Below are positions 3,672 through 63,790 of a stretch of DNA of 64,000 bases, one piece after another. The stretch covers positions 19,457-83,456 of the forward strand of contig JBCCXL010000017.1 of NCBI GenBank assembly GCA_039191605.1, read 5' to 3'. Position 1 is the first letter of the stretch. Each line of letters begins with the position of its first letter. The notes below the pieces were generated by a model, which had not been told where the DNA came from, did not search any database, and saw only the letters and a program-made list of their open reading frames with translations. This DNA comes from Acidobacteriota bacterium. Its GTDB lineage: Bacteria; Acidobacteriota; Thermoanaerobaculia; Multivoradales; JAHZIX01. A program made the position numbers and the translations under genes.

Positions 3672-4334
3672 TCAGCCGCTGACGGCGGCGCCCAGACCCA
3701 CCGGGCAGCTCACCCCGGTTCCCCCGATACCGCAATAACCTCCGGGATTCTTCGCCAGGTATTGCTGGTGATAGGCCTCGGCAAAGTAGAGCTTGGGAGC
3801 TTTTAGGATCTCGGTGGTGATCTCGCCGTAGCCGGCGCCCTGCAGCTGCTGCTGATAGAGGTCGCGGCTGGCCTCCGCCGCCTGCTTCTGGGCCTCGGAA
3901 GTGACGTAGATGCCGGAACGGTATTGCGTGCCCTGATCGTTGCCTTGGCGCATGCCTTGGGTGGGATCGTGGCTTTCCCAGAAGCGCTGCAGCAGGCTTT
4001 CGAAGCTGAGGGTCGCCGGATCGAAGACCACCAGCACCACCTCGTTGTGGCCGGTGAGGCCGGAGCACACTTCCTCATAGGTGGGGTTGGGGGTGAGGCC
4101 GGCGGCGTAGCCCACGGCGGTGGTGAACACTCCCTCGGCTTGCCACATCACCCGCTCTGCACCCCAGAAGCAGCCCATGCCGAAGAGCACTCGCTCGGTG
4201 CCTTGGGGATAGGGAGGGGCTAAGGGGGCGTCGAGGACGTGGTGCTTCGCAGGAACCGGGATGGCGGTCTCGCGGCCAGGGAGAGCCTGATTGGCGGTAG
4301 GAAGGACGAGTTTCTTGGGTGAGGTGAAGAACAT
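3672..4334 (-). CDS. msrA: peptide methionine sulfoxide reductase MsrA
   Basis: The GMGCFWG active-site motif is followed by the conserved MsrA core ([38 protein letters not shown]). Confidence 0.92.
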
Positions 4335-14375: not shown

Positions 14376-14438
14376 GCTTTGGCTTTCAGGGCTTGGCTTT
14401 CAGGGCTTGGCTTTCAGGGCTTGGCTTTCAGGGCTTGC
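14376..14438. repeat. 15-bp tandem direct repeat x4 (ggctttcagggcttg), intergenic
   Basis: Four perfect or near-perfect copies, read directly from the sequence. Confidence 0.9.
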
Positions 14439-26196: not shown

Positions 26197-26220
26197 ATGC
26201 TGAGGCTAGGAATCCTAGAG

Positions 26221-26290
26221 CTGGCCATGCTGAGACTGGCCATGCTGAAACTGGCCATTCTGAAACTGGCCATTCTGAAACTGGCAACCT
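26221..26290. repeat. 15-bp tandem direct repeat, about 4.5 copies (ctggccatgctgaaa), intergenic
   Basis: Read directly. It also generates a spurious antisense ORF beginning MPVSEWPVSEWPVSAWPVSAWP. Confidence 0.9.
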
Positions 26291-26312
26291 CTAGGATTGA
26301 GTCGTCCGCTAC

Positions 26313-27200: not shown

Positions 27201-27603
27201 GGGAAGTCTCCTTGAGGGATTTTCTATGAGAAGGACCAGGGCCTAAGGAAAGATGTAGGGGTGCGACACTTTGCGGTCTGTCGTCGATTCAAATCAGTTG
27301 GCTGGTAGCCGAGAGCAGCCTTAGGAGGCTAAGCTCAACGCGAGTTCTGCCGTGGTGACTCGACTCACCTTGGCTCAGCTATTTATCATTATCTGTGGAC
27401 GAAGCTCGAGGTTCCTTAGCAACTATCTACGGCGGGGAGGGCCTGAAGTTCGTCGCAGCTCTCACTGCTTACGAGCTTCGGCCGCTGGCTGCGGCTGTCG
27501 CAACCCATGCGGCGCCAACGTCCTCAATCGCGGCTCGGGCTCATTCTCGGTGCTTCGAAGCCCTTTGGGGTATCAGGAGTTTCCCGGACCCCGTTCCCGG
27601 GCC

Positions 27604-27642
27604 CTGAGCTCCCGGAGCCTGAGCTCCCGGAGCCTCACCTCC
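27604..27642. repeat. 15-bp tandem repeat x2 plus a partial copy (ctgagctcccggagc)
   Basis: Read directly. It lies upstream of the gene at 27680. Confidence 0.7.
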
Positions 27643-29898: not shown

Positions 29899-30240
29899 GG
29901 CAGCTGCGATGGGGATACAGGGGGAAGCCTGCGGAGGTGGAAGAAGCTTCCTGGGAGTCTCCACCGTGAAGCGGTGGATGGATTCCTCCGGGTGACTCCC
30001 GAGGGCTAGACCAGTGTACCGCCTGAGCTTCTCGCGGAGCCGGCTCGGGAGCCTTACGGAGGGTCGCGAGAGGAGCCTGAAACCTTCGGATCTTCCTCCT
30101 CGTTGTCCTCTATATCCCCCTGCTGGTATTCGCTGGCGTCGGGGCGGAGGATGAGCGCGCCGTCGCCGACCTGAGGATCGGGAGAGTAGCGGCGAGGTAC
30201 AATAGAAAGGTCGGCTCGGCCGACGACACTTCCCGCTGAA

Positions 30241-30349
30241 GATCACAGCGATCTGAAGATCGCGGCGTTTGAAGATTGCGGCATTCGAAGATCATCGCGT
30301 CTGAAGAGCACCGCGTCTAAAGAGCATCACGTCTGAAGATCACCGCATA
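30241..30349. repeat. 16-bp tandem direct repeat, about 6.8 copies (tgaagatcgcggcgtt and variants)
   Basis: Read directly. It lies 75 bp upstream of the SPFH gene start. Confidence 0.9.
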
Positions 30350-35603: not shown

Positions 35604-38600
35604 GTGGCGACAATCCCGGGACCCTCAGCGGATCCGTCCTCAGCGGTGGAAGAGCTCGATCCTGAAGATCGAGGCGAGGAGAGGAGTGCGTCCACAGAGG
35701 CGGAGGATGCCGGCTGGCGCCGGGTTAGCGCGCAGCTAGAGGCGGTCATCGATCAGCTCGATGGTCTGCGCGGAGAGGTCTCCACCCTGCGGCGCAGGCT
35801 CGACGTGCTGGAGGAGCAGAGAGAGGCGCAAGGAGCGGCGGACTCTGCCCTCGAAGGTGTTGCGGCCCAGGGCTCCGCCACGGTTGTCTCGACGGGCGAA
35901 CCTTCGGCCGATGGCGATTCCCTGGCGACGGTGACCAACGAGGCGGCCAGCCTTGAGACCGTCGGCATTGATACGGCCAGTGCGGAGAGGACCAGCGCTG
36001 ATTTAACCGGTGCTGATTTAGCCAGTCTTGGGGCAGCCGATGCGGAGACCGTCAACGGCGAGACCTCGAGCCCCGACGGAGCCGTAGAGGACGGGCAGCA
36101 GGAAGGGAAACCCTCCAAGGGACGGATGGCGGAAGCGGTGGCCGCGGCGCGAAAACGCGTGGTGGCGGCGGCGCCGTCGCCGCCGCCGGAGCGGGCCCAG
36201 GCGCTGGAGACCACCATCGGCGCGGTGTGGTTCAGTCGAGTCGGCCTGGCGCTGTTGATGGTCTTCTTCGCTCTCTTTGCGCGCTGGGTGGTGCCGGCTC
36301 TCTCGCCGGCCCTACGGGTCACCGCCAGCTACCTGGCGGCGGTGCTGCTGGGCTTTGTCGGCCTGCGTCTCTCGCAGCGCCTTCCGACCTTCGGTCGCTC
36401 GGTAGTAGCGGGGGGGCTGGCGGTGGCCTTCTTCACCTCCTTCGCCGCTCATTTCGTTCCCCCCATGGCCTGTCTGCCGCTGGTGGCCTCACTGCTCTTG
36501 ATGGCGGCCTTCGTGGTCGCTCTCTTGATCTGCGCGGAGCAATGGGACGCCCCGGGGATCGCAGGCCTGGCGCTCACTTTGGGCTACGTCGCCGCCTTTG
36601 TCGCCAGCTACGACGCCGAGATCTTTTCCATGGCGGCCATCGTCTTCCTCGCCGCCGCGGCGGTGGGGTTGGTGGTGCGCCACGACTGGCTTCCCCTGGG
36701 CTTCTACTCGGTTCTCGCTACCTTCAGCTTCAACCTGCTGACCTGGTTGGCGAACCCCGCCTTGGCGGCGAACGAGGACCGCTTCGCCCTCAATCTCGCC
36801 GCCCTGACGGCGTATTACCTGCTCTACGTCTCCGTCGATCTGGTGTTCCATCATCGCCTGGCGCGGCGCGGGATCGCCGCCTTCCCGCAGCGAGATCGGG
36901 TCGCCGGGCGCTGCATCGGAGCGACGGCGGTGGCCGCCTTCGGCGTGCAGGGGGTGCTGCTCTTCCACTCCATCCCCAGCCATTGGCAGCAGGTTCACCT
37001 CTTCCTCGCCGCCGCGGCCCTCTTCCAGCTGGTGCTCACGGTCGTTCACCGCATCTTCGACGGTGGGGAGCGCATGCTGCACCTCACTTCGGCGGTGACC
37101 TTCGTCACCCTCGCGCTCTTCGCTTCGGTGGGGGGGCTGGCCCTCAACATGGCGCTGGCGGCGGAGGCGCTGCTGCTGCTGGTCCTCGGCAGGACCACCG
37201 GAAATTGGTTCCTGCGGCCTTTGTCCCAGAGCGTCTTGGTGGTGAATTTCTTCCACTTCTGGTTCTCCGAGGCGCGGGAGGTCAACAGCTGGCCCCTCTT
37301 CCTCGGGGCGGTGGTGATGGCCTCGGTGTACTTCGTCAAATCCCACCACAACGACACCTGGGCGCCGGTGCCGGACGAGGCGCGCTTTTCGCCGGTGGGG
37401 GGCTTCTCCCGCTGGTGGCGCAAGGCCTACGGCCGCGCCAGCACGCCCATCGCCTATTGGCAGACCCTCTCCGGCGCGGCGCTGATCTCCTATCAATGTG
37501 ACCTCTTTCTGGCCGCTCCCTACAACGCGCTGATGTTGGTGGGGCTGGCGGCCATTACCTTCGCCGCCGGGATCGCATTTCATAGCGCGCCGATTCTGCA
37601 GGGCGTGGCGCTGATGCAGATCTCCGCCGCCATTCTGCTCCTGCGCCAGCTCATCGAGGCGCCGGCCCGATGGCCTTCGTGGACCCGGGAAGTGAACCAG
37701 GGGGTGGTACTGGCCCTCGCCCTCCTCGCCCTGGCGGCGGTTTGGGTCGCCCGGCATCGCCATCGCCGCACCTATATGCGCTTCGCCAGCGCGGCCTTGC
37801 TGGCCACCGGCCTCGGGGCCTTGGGGGCCGGGCTGACCCCCGCGGTGGCGAGCCACCGCCTTCTGGCCCTCGGCCTGCCGGCGGTGGTGGCGGTGGTGAT
37901 GTGGATCTCCATCGAGATCTGGCCTTCGGCGCCGCGGCCGGTGGCGGAGCTGTCCCGCCGCCTGGCTCGCTTCTATCGCGGCACCCGCCGCCGCCGCGCC
38001 GTATTTGCCGCCTTTGCGGCGACCGCACCCTTCGCTTCGGCGGGAGCGGTGCTGGAGCCCTTCTCCGCCCTCGCCTGGCTCTCCCTCTGGGGACTTGCCC
38101 TCGCCGCTGCGGCGCTGGTTCGCGGCAGCGCCTATCTGCTGCTCGGCGTGCTGATTCATCAGCTGGTCTCCGGGGCCCTGGTGATCTTCCACCTCTCCAC
38201 CGGATCCGCCGCCCACAACCTGCTGAAGTGGTGGGTGGTGACGGCGATGGTGGTGGTGGCGGCGGCCCTCTTCCATCGTGCCGGAGCGGTGCGTCGGGCC
38301 TCCTTCGGGGTGGTGGGCTTCGTGGTCTTCTTCGAGAGCCTGCTGATCCTCGCCATCACCGCCGTGGCTCCGGAGCAGCGATTCGACCCGGTGTGGATCT
38401 GGGCGCTGCCGCTGGCGGGGCTGTGGTGGGTGATCGAAGCGCTGCGGGCCTGCCCGGTGCGCTGTCCGGTGACCACCAGCTCCTGGCAGGACCGCTGGGG
38501 GAGCCGCTGGCTGCCCCGCTGGTGCCACCCCGGCGCCGGGGTGGGATCGATCCTCACCGCGGCGGTGCTGGGCTGCATCCTGGGCCGTGCTCTGCCCACC

Positions 38601-40100
38601 GCCGCCGAGGCTCTGGGAGCGATGGCGCTGGCGGCTCTGCTGCTGCTGGCGGCGACGGTATTGCGCAGCAGCCCCTACCTGATGGCCGGTCTGCTGACTC
38701 TCCTCGGGCTGATGCTGGGGCACCGCACCCTTTACCTCGGCGACCTCAGCGGCGGCACTCTGCTGGAATGGACCACGGTGTCGACGCCGGTGCTGGCCGC
38801 CGCCGCTCTGCTCTGGGCGGCGCCGCGGTGGCGCCGGGGGTCCTTCTTCTGGGGCGGCCTGGTGGCCCTCACCCTCGGCCTGGTGGCCCTCGCTCAGCTG
38901 ATCTTCGAGGCGCCCACCGGGGGAGCGCCGCGCTGGCTGTGGGGCCTGAGCTTCGCCGCCTGCTGGCTGGCTTTGGAGCAGCTGCAGCGGGGCGTGGTGG
39001 CGGCTTCGGAGGGCGCCACGGCGGACTGGCGGGACGAGCTGGATCTTCGCCGGCTGCTGCAATGTGGCCGCGGACTGGCGGTGGCGCTGTCGGCGGTGAC
39101 GGCCCTGCTGCTGGTGGCGATGACCTGGCGTCAGGTGCCGGATCCCATCGTGATGGTCTCGGTGGTGCTGGCCTACGCGATCTTCTTTGTCGCTTTGACC
39201 GCGTGGTGGAAGAGCCCGCCCCTGGCGGCGGCCTTCGCGGTGTGCTTGCTGGTAGTCCATCCGCTGATTTACTGGCGGGTGGGTGCACGGGATGCGGCGG
39301 GGGAATCGCCGCTGCTGGCGGCGGCGGTGCTGGTGGTGACGCTGGTGGCGGGGGCGGCGGTGGAGGCGATCTTCCGCGCCCAGGAGGTCGCCGGTCAGCG
39401 GCGTCCCGCCTGGTGGGGGGCTTGGTATCCCTACGCCTCTGGCTTTGCTCTTTCCGCCTTGGTGCTGGCGGCGATGGGGGAGGAATTCTTCGGCGCGCCG
39501 GCCTACGCAACCCCTCTTCAGCTGGTGCCGGCGGTCCTCGCCCTGGCGGCGGCCCTACGCTTCGAGCTGCGATGGCTGGCGCGGGCTAGTCTGCTCTACG
39601 CAGCGCTGATGGTCCTCGCCCAAGCGGTGCTGGCGGCGTGGCTGCCGGCGTGGCGGGCGGAGCTCGCCCATGCGACCTTGTTCACCCTCGCCCTGCTGGT
39701 GCTGATGGAGCGCCTGGTGGCTTGGGTGCCCGCGGAGCGACTCTCCGAGGGGCAGCGAGCCTTGGCCTTGACCTATCGCTGGGGTTTGGTAGCTGGGGGC
39801 GGAGTACTGGCGGCGTGGTGCTTCTCCTGGGCAGAGGAGGTCGGTGGCCTGTGGGCGACCGCCAGCTGGAGCCTGCTGGCCCTGTTGTGGATGGGGCTGG
39901 GCTTTGCCTGGCGCAGCGTAGAGTACCGGCGGGTGGCGCTGGTTCTCTTCTTCGCCGCGATCCTTCGCCTCTTCTTCCTCGATGTCCCGAGGCTGGATCT
40001 GATTTACAGCATGATGGCCTTTCTCTGCCTGGGAGTGACCATGGTTCTCGCTTCGTACCTCTACAACCGCTACCGAGAAGAGATCGGACGATGGTTATGA
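35604..40100 (+). CDS. giant polytopic membrane protein (DUF2339-like). It has an N-terminal coiled coil followed by more than 30 predicted TM helices.
   Basis: Coiled coil: LEAVIDQLDGLRGEVSTLRRRLDVLEEQ. Hydrophobic helices then run for about 1300 aa. Confidence 0.6.
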   Translation: MATIPGPSADPSSAVEELDPEDRGEERSASTEAEDAGWRRVSAQLEAVIDQLDGLRGEVSTLRRRLDVLEEQREAQGAADSALEGVAAQGSATVVSTGEPSADGDSLATVTNEAASLETVGIDTASAERTSADLTGADLASLGAADAETVNGETSSPDGAVEDGQQEGKPSKGRMAEAVAAARKRVVAAAPSPPPERAQALETTIGAVWFSRVGLALLMVFFALFARWVVPALSPALRVTASYLAAVLLGFVGLRLSQRLPTFGRSVVAGGLAVAFFTSFAAHFVPPMACLPLVASLLLMAAFVVALLICAEQWDAPGIAGLALTLGYVAAFVASYDAEIFSMAAIVFLAAAAVGLVVRHDWLPLGFYSVLATFSFNLLTWLANPALAANEDRFALNLAALTAYYLLYVSVDLVFHHRLARRGIAAFPQRDRVAGRCIGATAVAAFGVQGVLLFHSIPSHWQQVHLFLAAAALFQLVLTVVHRIFDGGERMLHLTSAVTFVTLALFASVGGLALNMALAAEALLLLVLGRTTGNWFLRPLSQSVLVVNFFHFWFSEAREVNSWPLFLGAVVMASVYFVKSHHNDTWAPVPDEARFSPVGGFSRWWRKAYGRASTPIAYWQTLSGAALISYQCDLFLAAPYNALMLVGLAAITFAAGIAFHSAPILQGVALMQISAAILLLRQLIEAPARWPSWTREVNQGVVLALALLALAAVWVARHRHRRTYMRFASAALLATGLGALGAGLTPAVASHRLLALGLPAVVAVVMWISIEIWPSAPRPVAELSRRLARFYRGTRRRRAVFAAFAATAPFASAGAVLEPFSALAWLSLWGLALAAAALVRGSAYLLLGVLIHQLVSGALVIFHLSTGSAAHNLLKWWVVTAMVVVAAALFHRAGAVRRASFGVVGFVVFFESLLILAITAVAPEQRFDPVWIWALPLAGLWWVIEALRACPVRCPVTTSSWQDRWGSRWLPRWCHPGAGVGSILTAAVLGCILGRALPTAAEALGAMALAALLLLAATVLRSSPYLMAGLLTLLGLMLGHRTLYLGDLSGGTLLEWTTVSTPVLAAAALLWAAPRWRRGSFFWGGLVALTLGLVALAQLIFEAPTGGAPRWLWGLSFAACWLALEQLQRGVVAASEGATADWRDELDLRRLLQCGRGLAVALSAVTALLLVAMTWRQVPDPIVMVSVVLAYAIFFVALTAWWKSPPLAAAFAVCLLVVHPLIYWRVGARDAAGESPLLAAAVLVVTLVAGAAVEAIFRAQEVAGQRRPAWWGAWYPYASGFALSALVLAAMGEEFFGAPAYATPLQLVPAVLALAAALRFELRWLARASLLYAALMVLAQAVLAAWLPAWRAELAHATLFTLALLVLMERLVAWVPAERLSEGQRALALTYRWGLVAGGGVLAAWCFSWAEEVGGLWATASWSLLALLWMGLGFAWRSVEYRRVALVLFFAAILRLFFLDVPRLDLIYSMMAFLCLGVTMVLASYLYNRYREEIGRWL

Positions 40101-51421: not shown

Positions 51422-54400
51422 GTGTCTTTAATGTGCCCTGTGTCTCCTAATCTAGGGTCAGCTGACGTCGATGGGCTCCTGGGGCTCGACGCCCTGGAGT
51501 CGGCGGTTGATGAGCACCCTAAATTAGGGCCGACGGTGGTGCATCGAGCGCGCCTCGAGGCCCAGCCCCGGCGTTCGGGGACTTTGGAGAAGGAGCTGCC
51601 GGAAGCGCTGCTGCAGATCCTGCGGGAGCGCGGGGTGGAGAATCTGTGGAGCCACCAGGCGGAGGCCCTGGATCTCGCCCGCCGGGGAGAGGACGTGCTG
51701 GTGACGACCCCCACCGCGTCCGGCAAGTCCTTGGTCTTTCAGCTGCCGGTGCTGGAAGAGGCGCTGAAGGGAGGGGAGGGCAGGGCTCTTTGGCTCTTCC
51801 CCCTCAAGGCCTTGGCCCAGGATCAGCGCGCCAAGCTGATGGAGATGGCCTCTGCCGTGGGGGTAGAGGAGAACTTCTGCGCCATCTATGACGGCGATAC
51901 GCCGCGCTCGCTGCGGCCGAAGATCCGCGCCGATCCGCCGCGGGTGCTGATCACCAACCCCGACATGCTGCACTTGGGTTTGCTGGCCCACTGGAATAGC
52001 TGGCGGCCCTTTTTCGCCTCGCTGCGCTGGCTGGTGCTGGACGAGCTGCACACCTATCGCGGCGTTTTCGGCAGCCACTTTCATCACGTGCTGGCGAGGC
52101 TCCAGCGCTTGTGTGCTCGGCTCGGCGCTCGCCCCGCGGTGATCGCCTCCTCCGCTACCGCCGACAACGCTGAGAGCTTCGCCGCGACCCTGATTCGGCG
52201 CCAGCTCACCACCATCGAGACCAGCGGCGCCCCGCGGGAGGCCCGCCGCTTCGTGCTGCTGCGCCCCTCCGCCAGCCCCTACACCGCGGCCCTGGACCTG
52301 CTCTGCCTGTGCCTGGAGCACGGCATGAAGACCATCGTCTTCACCAAGGCCCGGCGCATCACCGAGCTGCTCTATTCCTGGCTGCGGCGGCGGGATCCGG
52401 CGCTGGCGGCGCGGGTGCGCTCCTATCGGGCGGGCTTCCTGCCGCAGGAGCGCCGGCGAATCGAGGGCCGCCTGGCTTCGGGGGAGCTGGATGGGGTGAT
52501 CTCCACCTCGGCGCTGGAGATGGGGATCGACATCGGAGGCCTGGATGCCTGCATTCTGGTGGGTTACCCCGGCAGCGTGATGGCCACCTGGCAGCGCAGC
52601 GGCCGGGTAGGGCGCAGCGGGCGGGAATCCCTCACCGTGATGGTGGCGCTGCCGGATGCTCTGGACCAATACTTCCTCGATCACCCCCAGGAGCTGCTGG
52701 AGCGGCCCTGCGAGCGGCTGATCATCAACCCGAGGAACCGCCCGGTGGCGGAGGCCCACCTGCGCTGTGCGGCGGCGGAGCTGACGCTTTCCCGGGAGCT
52801 GGACGAGGATTACCTGGCCGACCAGGAAGAGGCGGTGGAGGCTCTGGTGGCGGCAGGAGATCTGCTGGAGGACGCCTCCGGCAGCGAGCTCTTCTGCGTT
52901 CGCCGTCGGCCCCACCGAGATGTCGCTCTGCGCGGCAGCGGCGGGACCCTCGAGGTGCGCCTGGATGGTGGCGAGGGAGCGGTGGTCGGCACTCTGGACG
53001 CCGGCCGAGCGCTGCGGGAGGCGCACCCCGGGGCGATCTATCTTCACGGCGGGCGCTCCTTTCGAATCGAGGCGCTGGATCTAGACTCCCAGCGCGCCCT
53101 GGCGGTGGCGGAAGAGGCGGATTACTTCACCACGCCGATGGCCCATAAGGAGACGGAGATCCTGGAGGTCCTGGAGCGGCGGGACGATGGTCCCCTCACC
53201 GCCTGGTTGGCGAGGCTGCAGGTGCGGGAACAGGTCACCGGCTACGAGCGCAAGCGGCTGCTGGATCAGGAGGTGCTCACCCGGCGGGACCTGGTGATGC
53301 CGAAGACCGAGATGGAGACGGTGGGGCTGCTCTTCGCCGCGGGGCCCGCCATCGAGGATGCCCTGAGGCGGGCGGAGCAGGGCTTCATGGGGGCGCTCCA
53401 CGCTTCGGAGCACGCCGCGATTTCTCTGATGCCGGCCTTCGCTCTGTGCGATCGCGGGGATATCGGCGGCATCTCGATCCCCTTCCACCCCCAGGTGGGA
53501 GCCGGGGCGGTGTTCATCTACGACGGGCATCACGGCGGCATGGGGCTGGCGCAGGAGGCCTTCCAACGCTTGCCGGAGCTGCTGTTGCGGGTGCGGGAGC
53601 TGCTGGACGCCTGCCCCTGTGAAATCGGCTGTCCCAGCTGTATCCAGAGCCCGAAGTGCGGCAACGGGAATCGACCCCTAGACAAGGCCGGAGCGGCCCA
53701 CCTTCTGCGCCTGCTGCTGGCGGAAGAGGCCCTTCCGGAGCCTTCTGATCCGCGCCTGGAGATCACCTTCGCGGCGCCGGAGGACGAGTCCAAGAAAGGC
53801 GAGGAAGGGGCCTCGGCCCCCGCCTGGGGAGGGATTCTTCGAGAGCCGGGGGCGAAGGTGGATTCGGCTCCGGTGGAAGAGCCCGCAGCGGTTGCGCAGC
53901 GCACTCTGCCGGTGGGAGAGCTCTCTCATCGCGAGGGTTCACGGTGCGGTAGTGAAGGGGGCCCGGCGGCGGTCGGCGCGTCGACGAGCCCCGAGGTGCC
54001 TAAGGCGAAGGCTGGATCATCGAAGACCGGCTCATCGAAGAAGGGGACATCCAAAGCTGGCTCATCCAAGGGTGGCTCATCCAAGAGCGGGCCATCGAAG
54101 GCCGTCTCGTCGGGGTCTGCGTCTCCAAGCCCTGCGTCTCCAAGCCCTGGGCCGTCTGGATCCGCGTCGTCGGGTTCTGGCGACTTACCTCTCACCGTGC
54201 TTTTCGACCTCGAGACGAAGCGCTCGGCGCAGGAGGTGGGGGGGTGGAATCGAGCCCACCGCATGGGCATCGCCATCGGCGTCGTCTGCTTCCTGGAGGA
54301 AGGCCGATTGGAGGTCTATCCCGAGGATCGGGTGGGGGAGCTTCACGCCGATCTCCGCCGGGCTTCTCTGGTGATCGGCTTCAACAGCCGGCGCTTCGAT

Positions 54401-54727
54401 TACGCGGTGCTCTCCGGCTATACCGGGGAGGACTACAGCCGCACCTTACCGACGCTCGATCTGCTGGAAGACCTGCAACGGCGCATCGGTCGCCGGGTGA
54501 GCCTCGATAGCCTCACCGCCGCCACTCTCGGCGCCAAGAAGAGCGCCGACGGGCTACAGAGCCTGGAATGGGTGAAGCAGGGGCGGCTGGACCTGGTGGA
54601 ATCCTATTGCCGCCGCGACGTCGAGCTGCTGCGAGACCTCTATCTCTTCGGGCGCCGGGAGGGCTACGTCCAGTTCACCCGCCGCAAGACCGGCGGCGAG
54701 GTGGAGAGAGTGGAGGTCGATTGGTGA
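51422..54727 (+). CDS. MrfA/YprA-like DEAD/DEAH-box helicase with DUF1998 (4-Cys) domain, fused through a Ser/Gly/Lys repeat linker to a DnaQ-like 3'-5' exonuclease (MrfB/YprB-like)
   Basis: Helicase motifs: TPTASGKS (motif I) and VLDELH (motif II). DUF1998 Cys cluster: CPCEIGCPSCIQSPKCGN. C-terminal exonuclease motifs: FDLET (Exo I), FNSRRFDYAVL (Exo II) and YCRRDVELLRDLY (Exo III). Confidence 0.8.
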   Translation: MSLMCPVSPNLGSADVDGLLGLDALESAVDEHPKLGPTVVHRARLEAQPRRSGTLEKELPEALLQILRERGVENLWSHQAEALDLARRGEDVLVTTPTASGKSLVFQLPVLEEALKGGEGRALWLFPLKALAQDQRAKLMEMASAVGVEENFCAIYDGDTPRSLRPKIRADPPRVLITNPDMLHLGLLAHWNSWRPFFASLRWLVLDELHTYRGVFGSHFHHVLARLQRLCARLGARPAVIASSATADNAESFAATLIRRQLTTIETSGAPREARRFVLLRPSASPYTAALDLLCLCLEHGMKTIVFTKARRITELLYSWLRRRDPALAARVRSYRAGFLPQERRRIEGRLASGELDGVISTSALEMGIDIGGLDACILVGYPGSVMATWQRSGRVGRSGRESLTVMVALPDALDQYFLDHPQELLERPCERLIINPRNRPVAEAHLRCAAAELTLSRELDEDYLADQEEAVEALVAAGDLLEDASGSELFCVRRRPHRDVALRGSGGTLEVRLDGGEGAVVGTLDAGRALREAHPGAIYLHGGRSFRIEALDLDSQRALAVAEEADYFTTPMAHKETEILEVLERRDDGPLTAWLARLQVREQVTGYERKRLLDQEVLTRRDLVMPKTEMETVGLLFAAGPAIEDALRRAEQGFMGALHASEHAAISLMPAFALCDRGDIGGISIPFHPQVGAGAVFIYDGHHGGMGLAQEAFQRLPELLLRVRELLDACPCEIGCPSCIQSPKCGNGNRPLDKAGAAHLLRLLLAEEALPEPSDPRLEITFAAPEDESKKGEEGASAPAWGGILREPGAKVDSAPVEEPAAVAQRTLPVGELSHREGSRCGSEGGPAAVGASTSPEVPKAKAGSSKTGSSKKGTSKAGSSKGGSSKSGPSKAVSSGSASPSPASPSPGPSGSASSGSGDLPLTVLFDLETKRSAQEVGGWNRAHRMGIAIGVVCFLEEGRLEVYPEDRVGELHADLRRASLVIGFNSRRFDYAVLSGYTGEDYSRTLPTLDLLEDLQRRIGRRVSLDSLTAATLGAKKSADGLQSLEWVKQGRLDLVESYCRRDVELLRDLYLFGRREGYVQFTRRKTGGEVERVEVDW
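54016..54120 (+). repeat. 15-bp tandem repeats x7 inside the helicase gene, encoding the (G/S)SSK-type linker
   Basis: The DNA reads gctcatcgaagaccg / gctcatcgaagaagg / ggacatccaaagctg ... This encodes GSSKTGSSKKGTSKAGSSKGGSSKSGPSKAVSS. Confidence 0.8.
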
Positions 54728-54883: not shown

Positions 54884-55243
54884 TCAGAGGTTGTCGACCA
54901 CCTCGAGGAGCTGCTGCAGGTCGAAGGGCTTCTTGATGTACGCCGCGGCGCCCCCGTCCAGCGCTCGCTGGGTGTCTTCTTCCTTGCCCTCGGTGGACAC
55001 CACCACCACGGGAATCCCCGCCAGGGCGTCGTCGGACTTGACTCGGCCGAGGAACTCCAGGCCGTTCATGTTGGGCATGTTGATGTCGAGCAGGATGGCG
55101 TCCACATCCGGGTGGTCGCTGAGCATGCGGAGCCCCTCCACGCCATCATTGGCGTGGACCAGATCGTATTGACGCAGCATCACGCCGAACATCTTGTGGA
55201 TCAGCTTCGAGTCGTCGACGATGAGGAACTTTTTCTGCGCCAC
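54884..55243 (-). CDS. cheY: CheY-like single-domain response regulator
   Basis: FLIVDDS, LLDINMP, VVVVSTEG and KPF are the REC signatures (Asp, Asp, Thr, Lys). Confidence 0.85.
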   Translation of the reverse strand: MAQKKFLIVDDSKLIHKMFGVMLRQYDLVHANDGVEGLRMLSDHPDVDAILLDINMPNMNGLEFLGRVKSDDALAGIPVVVVSTEGKEEDTQRALDGGAAAYIKKPFDLQQLLEVVDNL

Positions 55244-55881
55244 GGTGAATGGGCCTCCAATTCACGGCCTCTGAAGGTGTCCGGCGGCCAGATCTAGCTC
55301 AGTGGGGTTTTGAAATGCCCTGAGAACGATCTGCTAGGGGTCTGTAGCCCCGGCGGTCGGCGGACGTTGGCCATTTCGACAAACCGCTCGATTCCTGCCC
55401 CTGGAGTAGGCAGCCAGGGAGCGCTCTCCCTGGGACGTTCTTTGGCGTCCTATGCCGTTGGGGAATGGAATCGAGGGAAGGGACCAGGCAAGAGCGCCTG
55501 GAATCGCCGGTAGACTAGCCTAAGGCCTGTTTCTACGCAAGCTTCGACCTGCGCTGCGATCCCTCTCCGAAGGGGTTGTTGGGAGGGCGCTGCCGGATCC
55601 TTCTTAGGCGAGCCTCAGACCTTCATCGACGAGTGCTCGTCTCTTGACATGGGGCGATGGCGGCGGGAGACTCTTCGTCTCTGTTTCGACACGGTTCCCA
55701 GCTTTGCGCCGCGCATCTCGCGGGGCCCGCCTCTCGATGTCCGGTTTCGTCTCTTCGCGCCCCAGCCGCGCCATTCGGTGCCTTCGCTTCGAGCTTCCTT
55801 TCGCACCGGAGGCTCCGTCGGCCGCCCTAGGGACCCTCCGTCGTCGGGACCTTTCACCCATTCCTCAAGGTTGAGAGCGCC

Positions 55882-57591
55882 ATGGACAGCGCATTCAAGG
55901 AGTTATTAGAAGACTTCGTCCTGGAGGCGCGAGAGCGCGCCGACACGGTAGAGGAGATGCTGCTGTCGCTGGCGGAGGCCAGTGCCGAGGAGCGAGAGCA
56001 GAAGGTCGCCCGGGCGAAGCGCCAGCTCCACACTCTGAAGGGCAATTCGGGGATGATGGGCTTTGGCGAGCTGCAGACGCTGGCCCACGAGATCGAGGAC
56101 GCCGTCGAGGCGCTGGATCTGGAGTCGCCGGAGATCGACGAGCTCCTGCAGCAGCTGGATCGCTTTCGGCTGCTGTTGCGCCAACAGGTCGCGAGTCAGC
56201 TGGAGGGAGGGGAAGACTCCGACGAGGACAGGACCCGGGCCGGTGACGAGCCCTCCGAAGCGGACGGGGTCTCGGCTGGGGAATCCGCTGAACAGGAGAC
56301 CGGTTCCGACGACGAAGGAGCCGAGGCCCGGGCGGATAGCCCCGGCGAGGATCCGCAGGAGCAAGAGCAGGAGCAGGAGGAGGTCAGCCGAGAGCTCGCC
56401 TCCGGCGGCGTTCGGGTGCTCTTCAGCGAGCTGGACGGCCTGGTAGAGCTGCTGGCGGAGGTTCTGCTCTATCGCAACCGCCTGGGGGATTCCCTCGGAC
56501 AGGTTCGCCAGCTGCTGCCGGGGGAGAACCGGGAACAGAGCGACGCCTGGGACGAGAGCGAGGCGGTGCGTCAATCTCTGGAGCAGGTGCTGGATTTTCT
56601 TCAGGAGCGCATTCTGCGGCTGCGTATGGTGCCGCTGGCGACCCTCTTCCGCCATCTGTCTCGCATCGTTCATGACGAGTCCCGTCGGGAGCAGAAGAAG
56701 GTGCGCTTCGTCACCGACGGTGGCGATACCCCGCTGGACAAAGCTCTTCTGGAGCTCGCCAGCGAGGCCCTCGGACACCTGGTGCGCAACGCCGTGAACC
56801 ACGGGGCGGAGCGCCCCGCGGAGCGCAAGGCGGCGGGGAAGGACGAGACCGCCGTGCTGCGGCTCTCGGCGGCGGTGAAGGGCCAGGAGGTCCATATCGA
56901 GGTCGAGGATGACGGCGGCGGGATCCACTACGAATCCCTGGAGGCGCTAGCGCGAGCGCGCGGCTTGCCCCACCGCACCCGGGCGGATCTCGACGCCCTG
57001 ATTTTCGAGGCGGGGGTTTCCACCCGTTCATCGACCTCCCTCTCGGCGGGGCGCGGCGTCGGCCTGGCGGCGGTGGCTTCGGCGGTGCGGCGCCACGGCG
57101 GGCGCATCGACCTTTCCTCGATGCCGGGGGAGGGGACTCGCTTCCTGCTTCGCCTGCCTCTGTCGGTCTCCATCACCCGGGCTTTGCTGCTGCGGGTGGA
57201 TGGCGAGGTCTACGCTCTGCCGCTGGGGGCGGTGATCGAGAGCCTGCGCCTGGAGATCGACGCCCTGGAGCGGGTCGGCGGGCGAGAGATCTTCCGCTGG
57301 CGGGGGCAGCTGGTGCCGGTTCTCGATCTCGGACAGTGGTTCCGCACCGCTATCGATCCACGAAGTCAGGGCTTCGTGGTGATCGTGGAGGCCCTGGGGC
57401 GCCACCGTGCGGTGGTGGTAGACGAGCTGGTGGGGATCCGGGACATCGTGGTGAAAGGCCTCGATCCCCTGCTCGGCTCTCCGCCGGGACTCTCCGGCTC
57501 CACCATCCTCGGCGATGGGCGAGCGGTGCTGATTCTCGATCCTTCGGCGCTCACCGAGCAGATCTCGACAGATTCGGCGGCGGTGGGGTGA
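55882..57591 (+). CDS. cheA: CheA-type histidine kinase (Hpt-dimerisation-HATPase-CheW)
   Basis: Hpt: QLHTLKGNSGMMGF. HATPase: LVRNAVNHGAE, DDGGGI and GRGVGL. The C-terminal CheW-like domain is present. Confidence 0.9.
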   Translation: MDSAFKELLEDFVLEARERADTVEEMLLSLAEASAEEREQKVARAKRQLHTLKGNSGMMGFGELQTLAHEIEDAVEALDLESPEIDELLQQLDRFRLLLRQQVASQLEGGEDSDEDRTRAGDEPSEADGVSAGESAEQETGSDDEGAEARADSPGEDPQEQEQEQEEVSRELASGGVRVLFSELDGLVELLAEVLLYRNRLGDSLGQVRQLLPGENREQSDAWDESEAVRQSLEQVLDFLQERILRLRMVPLATLFRHLSRIVHDESRREQKKVRFVTDGGDTPLDKALLELASEALGHLVRNAVNHGAERPAERKAAGKDETAVLRLSAAVKGQEVHIEVEDDGGGIHYESLEALARARGLPHRTRADLDALIFEAGVSTRSSTSLSAGRGVGLAAVASAVRRHGGRIDLSSMPGEGTRFLLRLPLSVSITRALLLRVDGEVYALPLGAVIESLRLEIDALERVGGREIFRWRGQLVPVLDLGQWFRTAIDPRSQGFVVIVEALGRHRAVVVDELVGIRDIVVKGLDPLLGSPPGLSGSTILGDGRAVLILDPSALTEQISTDSAAVG

Positions 57592-57595
57592 GCCG

Positions 57596-58132
57596 ATGAG
57601 CGCAACTCCCGAAGTAGGCGCTAGCGCCTCTGCCCTGTCGCCGACCCTGGCATCGGGCTCAGCCCAGGAGCCCGCCGAAGAGAGCCGGGCACAGTCTCCC
57701 TGGGTACTCTGCGAAAGCGGAGGGATGGCCTTCGCCGTCGATCTGGATCGGGTGGTGGAGGTCTTTGGCGCTTCCTCTCTGCTGCCGGCTCCCGACGACG
57801 CCCCGGAAGCGGTGATCGCCATCGCCCAGGGAGGCGGCCTGCGGGTTCCGGTGGTGTCTTTAGCTCGCCAGCTGGGGGTGGAGGAGGCGGTGGAGGCGAA
57901 TCGGCGGCGAGTGCTGGTGGTGTCCTCCCAGGGTCGCGCCATCGGTCTGGAGGTGGATCGGGTGCGCAGCATTCTGGCCCTGGAGCGCGCCGGCCGGCAG
58001 CCGGTACCGAGGGTTCTAGCCGGCATCAGCGGCGGGCTTCCGGCCATTGCTGGCTTCGCTTTTCACCAGCAGCGCTGGCTGATGTTGTTGGAGGTCGACG
58101 GTCTGCTCTCGCCGCGATGGGGCCGGTCTTGA
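57596..58132 (+). CDS. cheW: CheW-like coupling protein
   Basis: WVLCESGGMAFAVDLDRVVEV and the downstream beta-sandwich pattern. The start lies 4 nt after the cheA stop. Confidence 0.7.
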   Translation: MSATPEVGASASALSPTLASGSAQEPAEESRAQSPWVLCESGGMAFAVDLDRVVEVFGASSLLPAPDDAPEAVIAIAQGGGLRVPVVSLARQLGVEEAVEANRRRVLVVSSQGRAIGLEVDRVRSILALERAGRQPVPRVLAGISGGLPAIAGFAFHQQRWLMLLEVDGLLSPRWGRS

Positions 58133-58565
58133 TAGGCTCGCCAGCCTGGCTCGCGGGAAGGGATCGAAGGAGCGGCTCTCGGTCCGATGAATCCCTTGCC
58201 CGAGACCATCGGTTGGCTTCCTTCCTGCACTGCTTTCCCCTACCTTCTCTCGTGGCGGCCATCGGCGCCGCGATCCGGGTCTCTCATCCCCTGCGTCCCG
58301 CAGATGAATCCTGCATCCACGGCGCCCCTCGGGGCCTGTCGACGGTGGTCCCGACGGAGATTTCCGCTCTTCGCGGGGTCCTGCGGCAGCCCAAGGCCTG
58401 CGCTCTCTAGGGAGCCGGGCCATTCCGCAGCTGCGGTCCTCGGGTCCTCTCGTTTCGACCTTCCCGGGCTCAAAGATCCTGCAGGTAGCGATGACAGAAG
58501 ATGGGCAGGACAGAAGACGGATCGGCAGAAGAGCTTCAAGCATCGGCATCTCAGACTTCGAAATT

Positions 58566-58700
58566 CAAAGACATCGACGGCCAAGACAGTGATGGCCAAG
58601 ACAGTGATGGCTAAGACAGTGATGGCTAAGACATCGACGGCCAAGAAAACGACAGTCAAGAAAACGATAGATAAGACAGCGACAGTCAAGACATCGACAT
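58566..58700. repeat. 15-bp tandem direct repeat x9 (ccaagacagtgatgg and variants), between cheW and the HEAT-repeat gene
   Basis: Read directly. The spurious ORFs over it encode KTVMAKTVMAKTV repeats. Confidence 0.9.
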
Positions 58701-58872
58701 CCCTGGGAGAGCGCCGCGGTGCACCTTCGCCGCGACGCAGCTTCAGCAGGTGGATTGTTCACCCGACTTTCCTCCTAGTGGTTCCAGCGGCGGTGGTTCC
58801 GGGGACCATGCTCCGGCGCCCACCCCGAGCCCACCGATCGATAGTGACGACGTAGCGAGAGGATCATCGACC

Positions 58873-60789
58873 ATGGCCCAATCCAATCCCCAGAGCGAAC
58901 CCAGCTGGGAGGAGTGCATCGAGCTACTCGAGCGCCTGCCCTCTATGTCCGTGCCGGAGCGTGTCGAGGCCATCGCGCTTCTCGTGCGCAACTCCAGTCC
59001 CGGAATCCGGGGGCGGGCTCTGCGGATGGGGGCTGCGGCCCTCTCCGACGACGTCCTCACCAGCTACTTGCGCAACGACGATGACGGCGTGCTGCGCAAC
59101 GCCGGTCTCGAGATGCTCAAGATGCGGGGTAATCGCGGCTTTTCCCTCGCTATCCACCTGCTCAAGGACCCGGACTACGACGTCGCCCTGCAGGCGGTGC
59201 TGATCCTCGACCACCTCAAGGATCCCCGCGCCCTCGAGGCGCTGCGGGGCCAGCTCCGCCACGAGGACATCAACGTCGTGCAGGCGGTGATCGTCGCTAT
59301 CGGTCACCTCGGGGACGCTCGCACCATTCCCGACCTGCTGCCCTACCTGGAAGGGGAATCGTGGCTGCAGGTAGCGGCGGTCGAGGCGCTGGGAGATATT
59401 CGCTCGCCGGTGGCGGTGCCTCATCTCGCCCAGCTGCTGACGGATCTGATGGTGGGGCCGATGGCCGCCGAGGCGCTGGCGCGCATCGGTGGCGAAGAGG
59501 CCTACCGCTTCCTCGCCGAGCACTGGCTGCGCTTCCGCCAGGAGCTGGACACGGAGACCACCCTGGGCCTGCTGGCCCACGTGCTGGAGGGGCTGCCGAA
59601 GTTCCCGGAGGAGGCCGAGGGGCTGCGCCCCGCGCTGGCGCAGCAGCTTCAGGGCGAGAGCGCCTCGATCCGCCTGCCGGCGGCGCGCTGTCTGCTGGCC
59701 CTGGGGCCCGGCAGCGAAGATCGCGCGGCGCTGGAGCAGCTGGTCGACCAGCAGCTGGATCCGCTGCTGCTGCCGGCCTGTCTGTCCGGGCGCCGCGATC
59801 TCATCGCCCGCCTGCTGCTCTCGCCGGATCAGCGCCGCGCCTGGGGCTTCCTGCTCTGCGCCCGCTTCCCGGAGCACATCCCCACCGAGGAGCTGGTGAC
59901 GGCTCTCTCCCGGCCGATGGAGCCGGAGTGGCTGGAGCTCTTGGTGAGGACCCTGTCGAAGGTGGAGAGCCGGCGGGTGGCGTCCGCCCTGCTGGACCTC
60001 TACCGCTCCCTCGGCAGCGGCGAGCGCTCGGCGCTGGCGCCGGTGCTCACCGCCCACGGCAGCCACCTGCGAACCCTGCTCAGCGAGCGAGACGACCTCC
60101 AGACCAAGACTCGGCTGGTGCTCTCGGTGCTGCTGGAGGAGCGGGTGGAGACCGCGGCGGCGGAGATTCAGCAGCTGCCGGAGGAAGACCGTCTCGAAGT
60201 GTTGGCGCAGATCACCGATCGCTCCGCCCTCACCCGGCTGCTGCCCTGGCGCCAGTGGATCGAACTCAGCCCCGACCGCTATGGCCCCATCGCCGCCGAG
60301 GTGGCGGTTCACGGCGGCCCCCGGGACCTGCGGCCGCAGCTGCGCTCCCTGCTGGAGCAATTCCCCGGCCCAGAGCTGGTGCGGGCGATGGGCGAGCTGG
60401 GGGATTCGGAGAGCGTTCCGACGCTAGTGGCCCTGCTGCAAGGCGGGGACGGCGCGCTGGATCTCATCGTGCTGGAATCCCTGGGGCGCATCGGCGGACC
60501 CCAGGTGCGGCGCACCCTGCGGGATGTGGCGGAGGGCAGCGGGGACGCCAAGCGGGCCCGCATCGCGTACCGCGCCCTCTCGCTCTGCGCCACCGATGAG
60601 GACGACGCCTTCTTCCGCGATGCGGCGGATCACGGAGATTGGTATGTGCGCTTGGCCTGTGCCGAGGTCCTCGGCCGGTTCCAGCGGCCGGAGAATCTCT
60701 CGGTGCTGGCTCAGCTAGCCTCGGACCCGGTCTCCATCGTCGCCCAGCGGGCGATGGCTCTGCTCGAATCGGAGGGTGTCGGCAAGTGA
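58873..60789 (+). CDS. HEAT/PBS-lyase-like repeat protein of the chemosensory cluster
   Basis: Recurrent ...R..A...LG......V..L..LL.D.. HEAT-like units (VPHLAQLLTD, VPTLVALLQGGD, DWYVRLACAEVLGR). Start trimmed to MAQSNPQ. Confidence 0.7.
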   Translation: MAQSNPQSEPSWEECIELLERLPSMSVPERVEAIALLVRNSSPGIRGRALRMGAAALSDDVLTSYLRNDDDGVLRNAGLEMLKMRGNRGFSLAIHLLKDPDYDVALQAVLILDHLKDPRALEALRGQLRHEDINVVQAVIVAIGHLGDARTIPDLLPYLEGESWLQVAAVEALGDIRSPVAVPHLAQLLTDLMVGPMAAEALARIGGEEAYRFLAEHWLRFRQELDTETTLGLLAHVLEGLPKFPEEAEGLRPALAQQLQGESASIRLPAARCLLALGPGSEDRAALEQLVDQQLDPLLLPACLSGRRDLIARLLLSPDQRRAWGFLLCARFPEHIPTEELVTALSRPMEPEWLELLVRTLSKVESRRVASALLDLYRSLGSGERSALAPVLTAHGSHLRTLLSERDDLQTKTRLVLSVLLEERVETAAAEIQQLPEEDRLEVLAQITDRSALTRLLPWRQWIELSPDRYGPIAAEVAVHGGPRDLRPQLRSLLEQFPGPELVRAMGELGDSESVPTLVALLQGGDGALDLIVLESLGRIGGPQVRRTLRDVAEGSGDAKRARIAYRALSLCATDEDDAFFRDAADHGDWYVRLACAEVLGRFQRPENLSVLAQLASDPVSIVAQRAMALLESEGVGK

Positions 60790-63002: not shown

Positions 63003-63680
63003 ATGGCCGCACGAAAGAAAGGCTCTTCCCGCTCTGCCTCCGCCGGATCCCGTTCCCGAGGCAAGGCCCCGGCGAAGAAGGACGAAGAACAGACCGTGAG
63101 CCAGGGCGAAGGTTCGGCGGACGAGGCGTCGTCAGAGGAGACGGCGCAGCCGGAGATCGACTCGGAGCTGGATCGGGTCTTTCAGCTGGCGGACGAGCTC
63201 AACGAGGCGGAGATCGAGCAGGAGGCACAGGAGAAAGCTAGCTCTTGGGTCACCTTCCGGGTAGCGGAGGAGATCTACGCCCTGCCGGTAGCGAGGGTGC
63301 AGGAGGTGATCAAGGTGGGGCCAGTGACGCCGGTGCCCCACACCCCGGTCTCGGTGCGCGGGGTCACCAACCTGCGAGGGCGAGTGCTGACGGTGGTGGA
63401 TTTGAGAATCCGCTTCGGCTTGGCGGAGAACGCCCTCAGCGAGCACCACCGGATCCTGGTGAGCCTCACCAGCAGCGGCCCGGTGGGGCTGCTGGTGGAC
63501 TCCGTCAGCCAGATGATCGCCGTGCGTCCCAGCGAGGTGGTGCCGCCGCCGGACGACGCCGCCACCGACGATGCGATTACCGGAGTGGTCTCTCAGCGCG
63601 ACGAGCTCACCTCTCTGCTCTCTCTAGAAGCTTTGCTACAAAGTCTGACCGCCGCCGCCAGCGCCAGTCACGGCGCCTAG
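63003..63680 (+). CDS. cheW: CheW-like protein with a charged N-terminal extension
   Basis: WVTFRVAEEIYALPVARVQEVIKVG...VRGVTNLRGRVLTVVDLR is a CheW domain. Confidence 0.7.
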   Translation: MAARKKGSSRSASAGSRSRGKAPAKKDEEQTVSQGEGSADEASSEETAQPEIDSELDRVFQLADELNEAEIEQEAQEKASSWVTFRVAEEIYALPVARVQEVIKVGPVTPVPHTPVSVRGVTNLRGRVLTVVDLRIRFGLAENALSEHHRILVSLTSSGPVGLLVDSVSQMIAVRPSEVVPPPDDAATDDAITGVVSQRDELTSLLSLEALLQSLTAAASASHGA

Positions 63681-63709
63681 TCGTCCCGCCCTCCGCAGCG
63701 CTATCTTTT

Positions 63710-63790
63710 GAGAGGCTATGTCTTGAGAGGCTTATGTCCTAGGCAGGCTATGTCCTGGGCAGGCTATGTCCTGGCGAGGCTGTGTCTTGG
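63710..63790. repeat. 15/16-bp tandem direct repeat, about 5 copies (ggcaggctatgtcct), intergenic after cheW
   Basis: Read directly. Confidence 0.85.

Follow-up and report, generated by a model that had tools for sequence, protein, structure and literature searches.

A nine-unit 15-bp tandem array in a long non-coding spacer of an Acidobacteriota chemosensory operon: probably a slippage-generated minisatellite

In a chemosensory operon of a Thermoanaerobaculia-like Acidobacteriota bacterium, 740 bp separate cheW from the gene for a HEAT-repeat protein, and within them nine 15-bp units follow one another head to tail. The question that this locus raises is what such a spacer and its repeats are: a missed gene, a functional RNA, a regulatory device for the genes downstream, or simply non-coding repeat DNA. 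We followed it through the 64-kb stretch of DNA that carries the locus (64,000 nucleotides, called the window in what follows and the source of all coordinates given without a locus name) and through related loci, and we consider it probable that the array is a slippage-generated non-coding minisatellite of the VNTR type, lying in a lineage-specific spacer. The genes and signals around the gap are the following.

51422–54727, DEAD/MZB helicase (Pfam)
54884–55243, minus strand, stand-alone receiver (Pfam)
55882–57591, CheA (Pfam)
57596–58132, plus strand, cheW, the upstream neighbour of the gap, intact (Pfam, alignment)
58133–58872, plus strand, lineage-specific non-coding spacer of 740 bp from cheW to the HEAT gene (relatives' junctions, similarity searches, codon usage, Pfam and Rfam)
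58857–58875, plus strand, Shine-Dalgarno site of the HEAT gene, GAGAGGA (58857–58863), with its ATG (58873) (sequence, homologues, gene call)
58873–60789, HEAT-repeat protein of 638 aa (Pfam)

Downstream of the HEAT gene, Pfam identifies CheR, CheB and then a second CheW at 63003–63680. A preliminary description of this DNA, made from its letters, had called cheA and cheW tight, and they are indeed 4 nt apart; the distance of about 740 bp that it gave between cheW and the HEAT gene proved to be exactly 740 bp. The C-terminus of CheW aligns with the CheW ends of relatives, and the start of the HEAT gene agrees with its homologues in both protein length (631 to 645 aa) and N-terminus.

The nine-copy 15-bp array that had been noticed between these two genes is present, as Tandem Repeats Finder, a repeat search and the self-identity of the array at a lag of 15 (0.81, z = 13.3 against shuffles) all indicate. 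It does not lie at the centre of the gap, as had been supposed, but in its 3′ part (midpoint 58633, against 58502 for the gap), 172 nt upstream of the HEAT start codon. Tandem Repeats Finder delimits it at 58568–58698, with a period of 15, 8.7 copies, 81% matches and a score of 101, and finds higher-order periods of 30 and 60 nested in it, while the repeat search finds the copies in register at a spacing of exactly 15 bp. Laid out along the array, the unit register gives nine head-to-tail units that together span 58566–58700.

58566, unit 1, CAAAGACATCGACGG
58581, unit 2, CCAAGACAGTGATGG
58596, unit 3, CCAAGACAGTGATGG
58611, unit 4, CTAAGACAGTGATGG
58626, unit 5, CTAAGACATCGACGG
58641, unit 6, CCAAGAAAACGACAG
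58656, unit 7, TCAAGAAAACGATAG
58671, unit 8, ATAAGACAGCGACAG
58686, unit 9, TCAAGACATCGACAT

Units 2 and 3 are exact copies of the unit quoted in the preliminary description, ccaagacagtgatgg, and unit 4 has one mismatch to it, a single C-to-T change; the other six of the nine units (1 and 5 to 9) carry four to six mismatches each. The diverged units fall into sub-types, with ...ACATCGACGG in units 1, 5 and 9, ...AAAACGA[C/T]AG in units 6 and 7, and ...ACAGCGACAG in unit 8. Upstream of the array, a weaker lag-15 signal at 58440–58565 (z = 3.9) corresponds to decayed units, among them GACAGAAGATGG / GACAGAAGACGG, so the footprint of the repeats is really about 58476–58700, which accounts for at most 225 of the 740 bp of the gap. 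The repeat features of the spacer are thus three in number.

58566–58700, no strand, nine-unit 15-bp tandem array (minisatellite) (Tandem Repeats Finder, repeat search, unit register, lag-15 identity, composition)
58581–58625, no strand, array core of three near-identical units (unit register and mismatch count)
58476–58565, no strand, decayed units with a 15/16-bp periodicity (lag-15 z = 3.9 for 58440–58565; one repeat family)

The array is well above chance expectation. With up to three mismatches allowed, the quoted unit has seven matches in the window where 1.17 would be expected, and all window matches with zero or one mismatch fall inside the array. The array is also the most AT-rich part of the region, being 49% GC and A/G-rich on the plus strand between flanks of 66 to 70% GC. 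Its core is young, and it is the part of the array likeliest to be able to slip. Neither the quoted 15-mer nor CAGAAGAC or CAAGACAT is enriched outside arrays in the window, and we rejected the possibility that the unit is a dispersed motif, as matches with at most one mismatch occur only in the array and those with three are at chance level in these 64 kb of the genome. We also rejected the possibility that the units are copies of the HEAT ribosome-binding site and start, the alignment scores being reached by about 7 to 39% of random segments, depending on the array.

How unusual such a junction is can be judged from relatives. Homologues of the HEAT protein are abundant in Thermoanaerobaculia and other Acidobacteriota MAGs, with full-length identities of at most 67%; the closest relative found, L068, has a partial HEAT match of 76%. 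We compared loci with the order helicase, receiver, cheA, cheW, HEAT, cheR, cheB and cheW, and in these same-order relatives the cheW-HEAT junction measures −4 to 96 bp or is replaced by a CheW-HEAT fusion, as in the following examples.

L002, junction of 56–68 bp
L006, junction of 67 bp
L010, junction of 15 bp
L034, junction of 70 bp
L068, junction of 7 bp
L044 and L052, junction of 2 bp
L026 and L046, overlap of 4 bp
L004, CheW and HEAT in one 822-aa ORF

Across about 70 relatives, the HEAT gene is separated from the gene before it by a median of 63 bp and by 257 bp at most, the latter figure after three gene-calling artefacts and one mis-called coding region had been dropped. Given that the junctions of relatives are this short, or fused, the 740 bp represent a lineage-specific expansion. 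It had been suggested that the spacer decouples the kinase genes from the adaptation genes, and in the physical sense it does so: because the gap is non-coding, as detailed below, and exceptional for an operon of this type, cheA-cheW is physically uncoupled from HEAT-cheR-cheB by 740 bp in place of the −4 to 96 bp or outright fusion of relatives.

As for where the spacer came from, blastn of the gap against the window, all related loci and plasmids found no match beyond the gap itself, and on this result we rejected a mobile element or a foreign insertion as its source. The roughly 500 bp outside the array footprint are thus similar to nothing in the window, the related loci or the plasmids. 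A weak lag-13 signal (z = 3.1) runs through 58133–58300, and this stretch may be an older, decayed array.

Two further observations concern the same junctions. The divergent region between the receiver gene and cheA (55244–55881) is 638 bp long, against 224 to 394 bp in relatives (L006 and L002), and therefore other junctions of the locus are also expanded in this genome. In L004 (5001–7469, and likewise in L005 and L009), CheW and the HEAT-repeat protein are fused in a single 822-aa ORF, and the fusion contig of L004 carries a second cheW and then a HEAT gene downstream. Such an arrangement suggests that the CheW and HEAT proteins work together physically in chemosensory operons of this kind.

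A spacer so much longer than those of relatives might be an assembly artefact, with the spacer itself or the unit count resulting from a mis-assembled metagenomic repeat. The sequence does come from a MAG, and assemblies do break inside comparable arrays, as L099 and L102 illustrate. Nevertheless, a separate Logan assembly of SRR22824305 (L001) is identical to the window over all 6273 bp, the whole gap included, which makes mis-assembly unlikely; the 135-bp array is made up mostly of distinct units, and for this reason is resolvable with short reads; and the flanking genes are intact. An artefact is hardly credible in view of this agreement.

If the spacer is real, it could still encode a protein. 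The cheW gene ends in two consecutive stops, TGA TAG, after which the same frame stays open for 240 codons and closes with a TAG at 58853–58855, only 17 nt before the HEAT ATG and adjoining its Shine-Dalgarno site. Most of this open frame belongs to one ORF.

58187–58855, plus strand, 222-codon ORF spanning the spacer in the cheW frame, not considered a gene

The ORF starts 55 nt past the cheW stop, and an AAGGAG lies 14 nt upstream of its ATG at 58187. In this frame, the array reads KTSTA-KTVMA-KTVMA-KTVMA-KTSTA-KKTTV-KKTID-KTATV-KTSTS, and in the other plus-strand frames it holds TGA or TAA stops. That the cheW frame should remain open along the entire spacer is somewhat unexpected, the probability of an open frame of such length arising by chance being about 0.015 to 0.04 in dinucleotide shuffles.

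One could imagine, then, that the spacer is translated, with termination at the end of the ORF followed by reinitiation at the HEAT start, or that it is the relic of a low-complexity C-terminal tail of CheW. Besides the open frame, the stop close to the HEAT ATG and the AAGGAG, a period of 15 bp keeps the frame at any copy number, and real proteins of the window contain pentapeptide repeats derived from 15-bp units (54006–54112 and 7273–7445). For a relic, one could point to the repeat-bearing CheW tail of L002 and to the CheW-HEAT fusion of L004. The composition of the ORF, however, is not that of a gene. Its third-position GC is about 0.65, against 0.75 to 0.88 in neighbouring genes, and gene-like third-position GC is absent from every frame of the gap. 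By a codon-usage log-likelihood for which 30 genes of the window served as the training set, the ORF scores −0.38 per codon where genes score 0.10 to 0.67. No gene scores so low, and the value also falls under the 5th percentile for 50-codon stretches taken from genes; each of the six frames of the gap is negative, from −0.17 to −0.67 per codon.

Similarity searches gave the same answer. Pfam found no family above cutoff in the six ORFs or peptides of the gap, and the sole match of the spanning ORF, to the histone-like HC2 family with 19.7 bits against a cutoff of 40, reflects its lysine-rich composition. A phmmer search of the 222-aa ORF against 1.84 billion representative proteins returned 0 homologues, all gap peptides with a length of 25 aa or more remained without a tblastn match in about 100 related loci (E ≥ 0.03), and an exact look-up found no protein from the gap on record in the NCBI annotation. 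On the strength of Pfam, phmmer, tblastn, annotation, third-position GC and codon usage, we ruled out a hidden gene, and the earlier designation of the gap as non-coding is borne out by all the coding tests that we ran. As regards a CheW tail, the residues R, S, P, C and W abound in the predicted sequence of the ORF, which sets it apart from natural tails, and CheW ends where the CheW of relatives ends, at the two consecutive stops. Furthermore, the arrays that precede HEAT in L018 and L019 repeat every 14 and 16 bp and are thus unable to keep a frame; the occurrence of these periods rules out a coding role for the array class as a whole. We therefore regard a translated spacer, or a vestige of CheW, as very unlikely.

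A coupling of this kind does have a parallel elsewhere, as it has been proposed that the small ORFs in mycobacterial MIRUs couple termination with reinitiation. Supply and colleagues are said to have described MIRUs in 1997 as tandem repeats in the intercistronic regions of operons such as senX3-regX3. The present locus is like them in that tandem repeats lie between co-directional genes of a signal-transduction operon, and in that an ORF sharing the frame of the upstream gene traverses the repeats and stops shortly before the start of the downstream one. However, MIRU units are 40 to 100 bp long and dispersed at dozens of loci, whereas the units here are 15 bp long and have no copies elsewhere in the window; the ORFs of MIRUs overlap the stop and start codons on either side, whereas this one begins 55 nt past the cheW stop and lacks a coding signal.

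The spacer could also act as an RNA, with the unit serving as a multi-site platform for an RNA-binding protein (a sponge of the CsrB/RsmZ type) or with the array giving rise to an antisense or small RNA. Nine evenly spaced, purine-rich and largely unstructured units would suit a platform, the arrays of L002 and L018 contain GGA motifs, and the minus strand of the array folds with a z-score of −2.74. The remaining evidence runs against such a role. Rfam found nothing in the gap at the gathering threshold, nor even at E ≤ 1, and the plus strand is no more stably folded than its shuffles (z = −0.31 for the array, +0.23 for the gap as a whole); together, these results rule out a known RNA family or a structured RNA. 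On neither strand of the gap do a promoter and a terminator bracket a small RNA. A sponge of the CsrB/RsmZ type presents GGA in hairpin loops and has its own promoter and terminator, whereas the array has no GGA in any of its nine units, no promoter and no terminator. Moreover, the arrays share no common motif, and this one is not conserved in relatives. We consider a functional RNA extremely unlikely.

A more general possibility, raised in the preliminary description, is that the array is a regulatory spacer or contains an internal promoter. The cheA-cheW transcript would then be terminated or attenuated, HEAT-cheR-cheB-cheW2 would be expressed separately, and the number of units would tune the output, with the spacer containing a promoter or, built from the repeated unit, a target for a factor that binds DNA or RNA. 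Several observations are in keeping with this possibility. The spacer is about three times as long as the longest equivalent junction in about 70 relatives, its array is the most AT-rich part of the region, other arrays fill divergent promoter regions elsewhere in the window (14379–14437 and 30236–30346), and arrays recur upstream of HEAT in L002, L018 and L019. In addition, many relatives have HEAT-cheR-cheB after a conserved leader of about 150 bp and without a cheW within 4 kb upstream, from which it follows that independent expression of HEAT-cheR-cheB occurs in the family. For instance, L047, L054 and L075 share such a leader of about 150 bp upstream of HEAT (around 3827–3976), ccgggtatactt ... 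ggaaaggagt, and the combination of this leader with the absence of cheW makes HEAT-cheR-cheB seem a separate transcription unit in those genomes.

Despite this, our scans of the gap lend no support to the proposed promoter. At the scan threshold, no sigma-70-like promoter was found in the gap, and when the scan was loosened its one match was at chance level, outside the array and overlapping the HEAT Shine-Dalgarno site; patterns of the sigma-54 and ECF-like types were not found in the gap either. There is likewise no intrinsic terminator in the gap, the only two matches both lying inside cheW, and the hairpin after cheW folds with a z-score of just −0.61. For operators or iterons, one would expect a period in helical phase (about 10.5 or 21 bp) and a cognate binding protein close by, whereas a spacing of 15 bp places successive sites on different faces of the helix, and the units at equivalent positions in other genomes have no significant motif in common. 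The neighbouring response regulator (54884–55243) consists of a receiver domain only. Finally, the recurrence of arrays at the HEAT junction is not significant, as described below, and similar arrays adjoin unrelated genes and are also found between convergent genes. Taking both sides together, a regulatory spacer seems unlikely to us.

Two known types of repeat that can affect expression may be compared with the array. In the contingency loci of Neisseria and Haemophilus, units of 1 to 9 nt separate the −35 from the −10 element or fall within reading frames, and a change of one unit switches expression. Repeat number could in principle alter downstream expression reversibly in our locus as well, but the unit here is 15 bp long, has no detectable promoter around it and lies 172 nt before a start codon, outside any gene. 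The REP/BIME elements of enterobacteria (for example, in malE-malF) are palindromic, form stable hairpins and are dispersed genome-wide. The array resembles them as a non-coding intra-operon repeat able to give unequal upstream and downstream expression, and differs from them in consisting of direct repeats that fold no better than shuffles and are unique.

The array is not alone in the window. Tandem Repeats Finder reports nine rows with a period of 14–16 and at least 3.5 copies in these 64 kb, and about eight arrays of such periods are present besides the one studied. Arrays of this kind in the window include the following.

7273–7445, array of period 15, in-frame within a protein-coding gene
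14379–14437, array of 14 × 4.2, between divergent ribonucleotide-reductase and glycosyltransferase genes
26221–26285, array of 15 × 4.3, between convergent M32 peptidase and DUF2911 genes
27595–27642, array of 15 × 2.7, intergenic
30236–30346, array of 16 × 6.9, filling a divergent intergenic region beside an SPFH gene
54006–54149, array of period 15, in-frame within a protein-coding gene
63700–63789, array of 16 × 5.7, between cheW2 and an M28 peptidase gene

Of the arrays that Tandem Repeats Finder reports in the window, every one that reaches 3.5 copies with a period of 10 or more has a period of 14–16, and their density is about 5 to 8 times that in 691 kb of related loci. The units of different arrays are unrelated beyond marginal similarity, and the neighbouring genes are as diverse as those for ribonucleotide reductase, a glycosyltransferase, an M32 peptidase, DUF2911 and SPFH proteins. 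The presence of about eight other arrays of this period beside unrelated genes weakens the idea of a device specific to the operon: in our reading, the array is one case of a genome-wide tendency to intergenic arrays of period 14–16, and not a chemosensory-operon device. A common origin of the arrays across genomes was tried and rejected, since the best cyclic matches are marginal (window against L018, 11/14, with p = 0.015 uncorrected for 119 comparisons). Our search of the literature found nothing on such arrays in Acidobacteria.

Arrays that differ from this one directly precede the HEAT gene in three relatives, other Thermoanaerobaculia genomes, whose junctions are the longest true junctions among the relatives.

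L002, 4898–4950, array of 15 × 3.5, straddling the cheW stop
L018, 3833–3961, array of 14 × 9.4, upstream of HEAT
L019, 3831–3941, array of 16 × 7.0, upstream of HEAT

This recurrence could be a hint of selection. Nevertheless, HEAT-upstream junctions make up 79 of the 466 junctions and have 3 of the 7 non-coding arrays, which is no significant enrichment (p of about 0.1), in a set of loci that were fetched because they contain HEAT.

The L018 array also gave us a view of length variation. Seven more contigs (L096 to L102), which come from different samples, encode exactly the HEAT protein of L018 (P0050), and between strains with this identical protein the 14-bp array of the L018 type differs by a 27-bp indel of two units. 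L018 and L096 have the short form, and L097, L098, L100 and L101 have the long one; the two remaining Logan assemblies, L099 and L102, end inside the array. Since whole units are gained or lost between strains in this array, arrays of such a class are true VNTRs. A second strain of the source organism was found neither in the collections nor in a metagenome scan, which yielded no close relative; only one sample carries the organism, a look-up of its receiver protein returned no record, and the nine-unit array may be length-variable between strains only by analogy with that of L018.

The likeness to known minisatellites is close. Bacterial VNTR or minisatellite loci are intergenic repeats with units of about 9 to 100 bp that are used in MLVA typing, for example, in Yersinia pestis, Burkholderia pseudomallei and Pseudomonas aeruginosa. 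The array shares with them head-to-tail units in the range of about 10 to 100 bp in non-coding DNA, tandem beyond chance and belonging neither to a conserved gene nor to a structured RNA; it mixes diverged old units with identical young ones at a locus that is unique and not dispersed; and, in a related genome, a similar array gains or loses entire units from strain to strain. It differs from them in that its genome and clade show a narrow preference for periods of 14–16 bp and a high density of arrays.

For these reasons, we favour a VNTR-type minisatellite, and we infer slippage as the mechanism that produced it at this locus. The array would have arisen and grown by slipped-strand mispairing or by unequal recombination between adjoining units. 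Point mutations would have set its old units (1, 5 to 9 and the decayed ones at 58476–58565) apart, and the core of three units (58581–58625) would be a recent expansion that is still able to gain and lose units. Most of the array may no longer slip, given its degeneracy (81% matches).

Any effect of the minisatellite and its spacer on coupling, polarity or stoichiometry would most likely be passive, through an untranslated stretch of 740 nt in the RNA from cheW to the HEAT gene, the latter presumably being translated from its own Shine-Dalgarno site, uncoupled from cheW. Transcripts may be partly lost in this ribosome-free spacer, for example, through the action of Rho on one particular stretch.

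58180–58310, plus strand, C-rich and pyrimidine-rich tract in the spacer (C/G 1.55–1.76; GC skew −0.10 to −0.17)

The C/G ratio of the tract exceeds the 95th percentile of coding windows (1.46), and the tract could be a candidate Rho-loading region. Loss of transcripts there would lower HEAT-CheR-CheB-CheW2 relative to CheA-CheW.

The immediate value of these results lies mainly in annotation: the 740-bp gap between cheW and HEAT is real non-coding DNA with a minisatellite in it, rather than an overlooked gene, an RNA family or a promoter that can be recognised. Strain typing could use the repeat as a marker, and it warns that short-read assemblies may break at such arrays. The finding would carry greater weight if the spacer resets the ratio of CheA-CheW to HEAT-CheR-CheB, which are tightly coupled or fused in relatives, or if the preference for 14–16 bp is due to a specific mechanism by which Acidobacteriota generate repeats, or to selection for spacers that can be tuned. 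Simple slippage does not account for the clustering of periods at 14–16 across unrelated units. One could therefore go further and propose that Acidobacteriota of the Thermoanaerobaculia type possess a distinct class of non-coding arrays, with a period fixed at 14–16 bp and a mechanism of their own in place of generic slippage, which repeatedly colonise the junctions in front of genes, among them the one before HEAT-CheR-CheB, and act there as evolvable, length-tunable spacers setting the ratio of CheA-CheW to the adaptation proteins, a proposal that we regard as improbable.

A few minor observations concern repeats and calls elsewhere. ARAGORN reports an 84-nt tRNA-Pro (CGG) at 38978–39061, inside a long ORF (35604–40100), and this is probably a false positive, as the Rfam tRNA model is silent there at its gathering threshold. 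Some 15-bp arrays are translated: that at 54006–54112 gives K-x-G-S-S pentapeptide repeats in the C-terminal tail of the DEAD/MZB helicase, that at 7273–7445 gives A-E-D-L-x and E-Q-A-Q-L pentapeptides in a 1269-aa AAA_16 protein, and a 15-bp array in L002 (9286–9342) encodes A-S-K-S-Q in the N-terminal part of the second CheW. Lastly, the array at 26221–26285 is bracketed by a perfect 10-bp inverted repeat (aatcctagag / ctctaggatt, at 26211–26220 and 26289–26298), and it looks as if this array had expanded inside the loop of a terminator-like hairpin.
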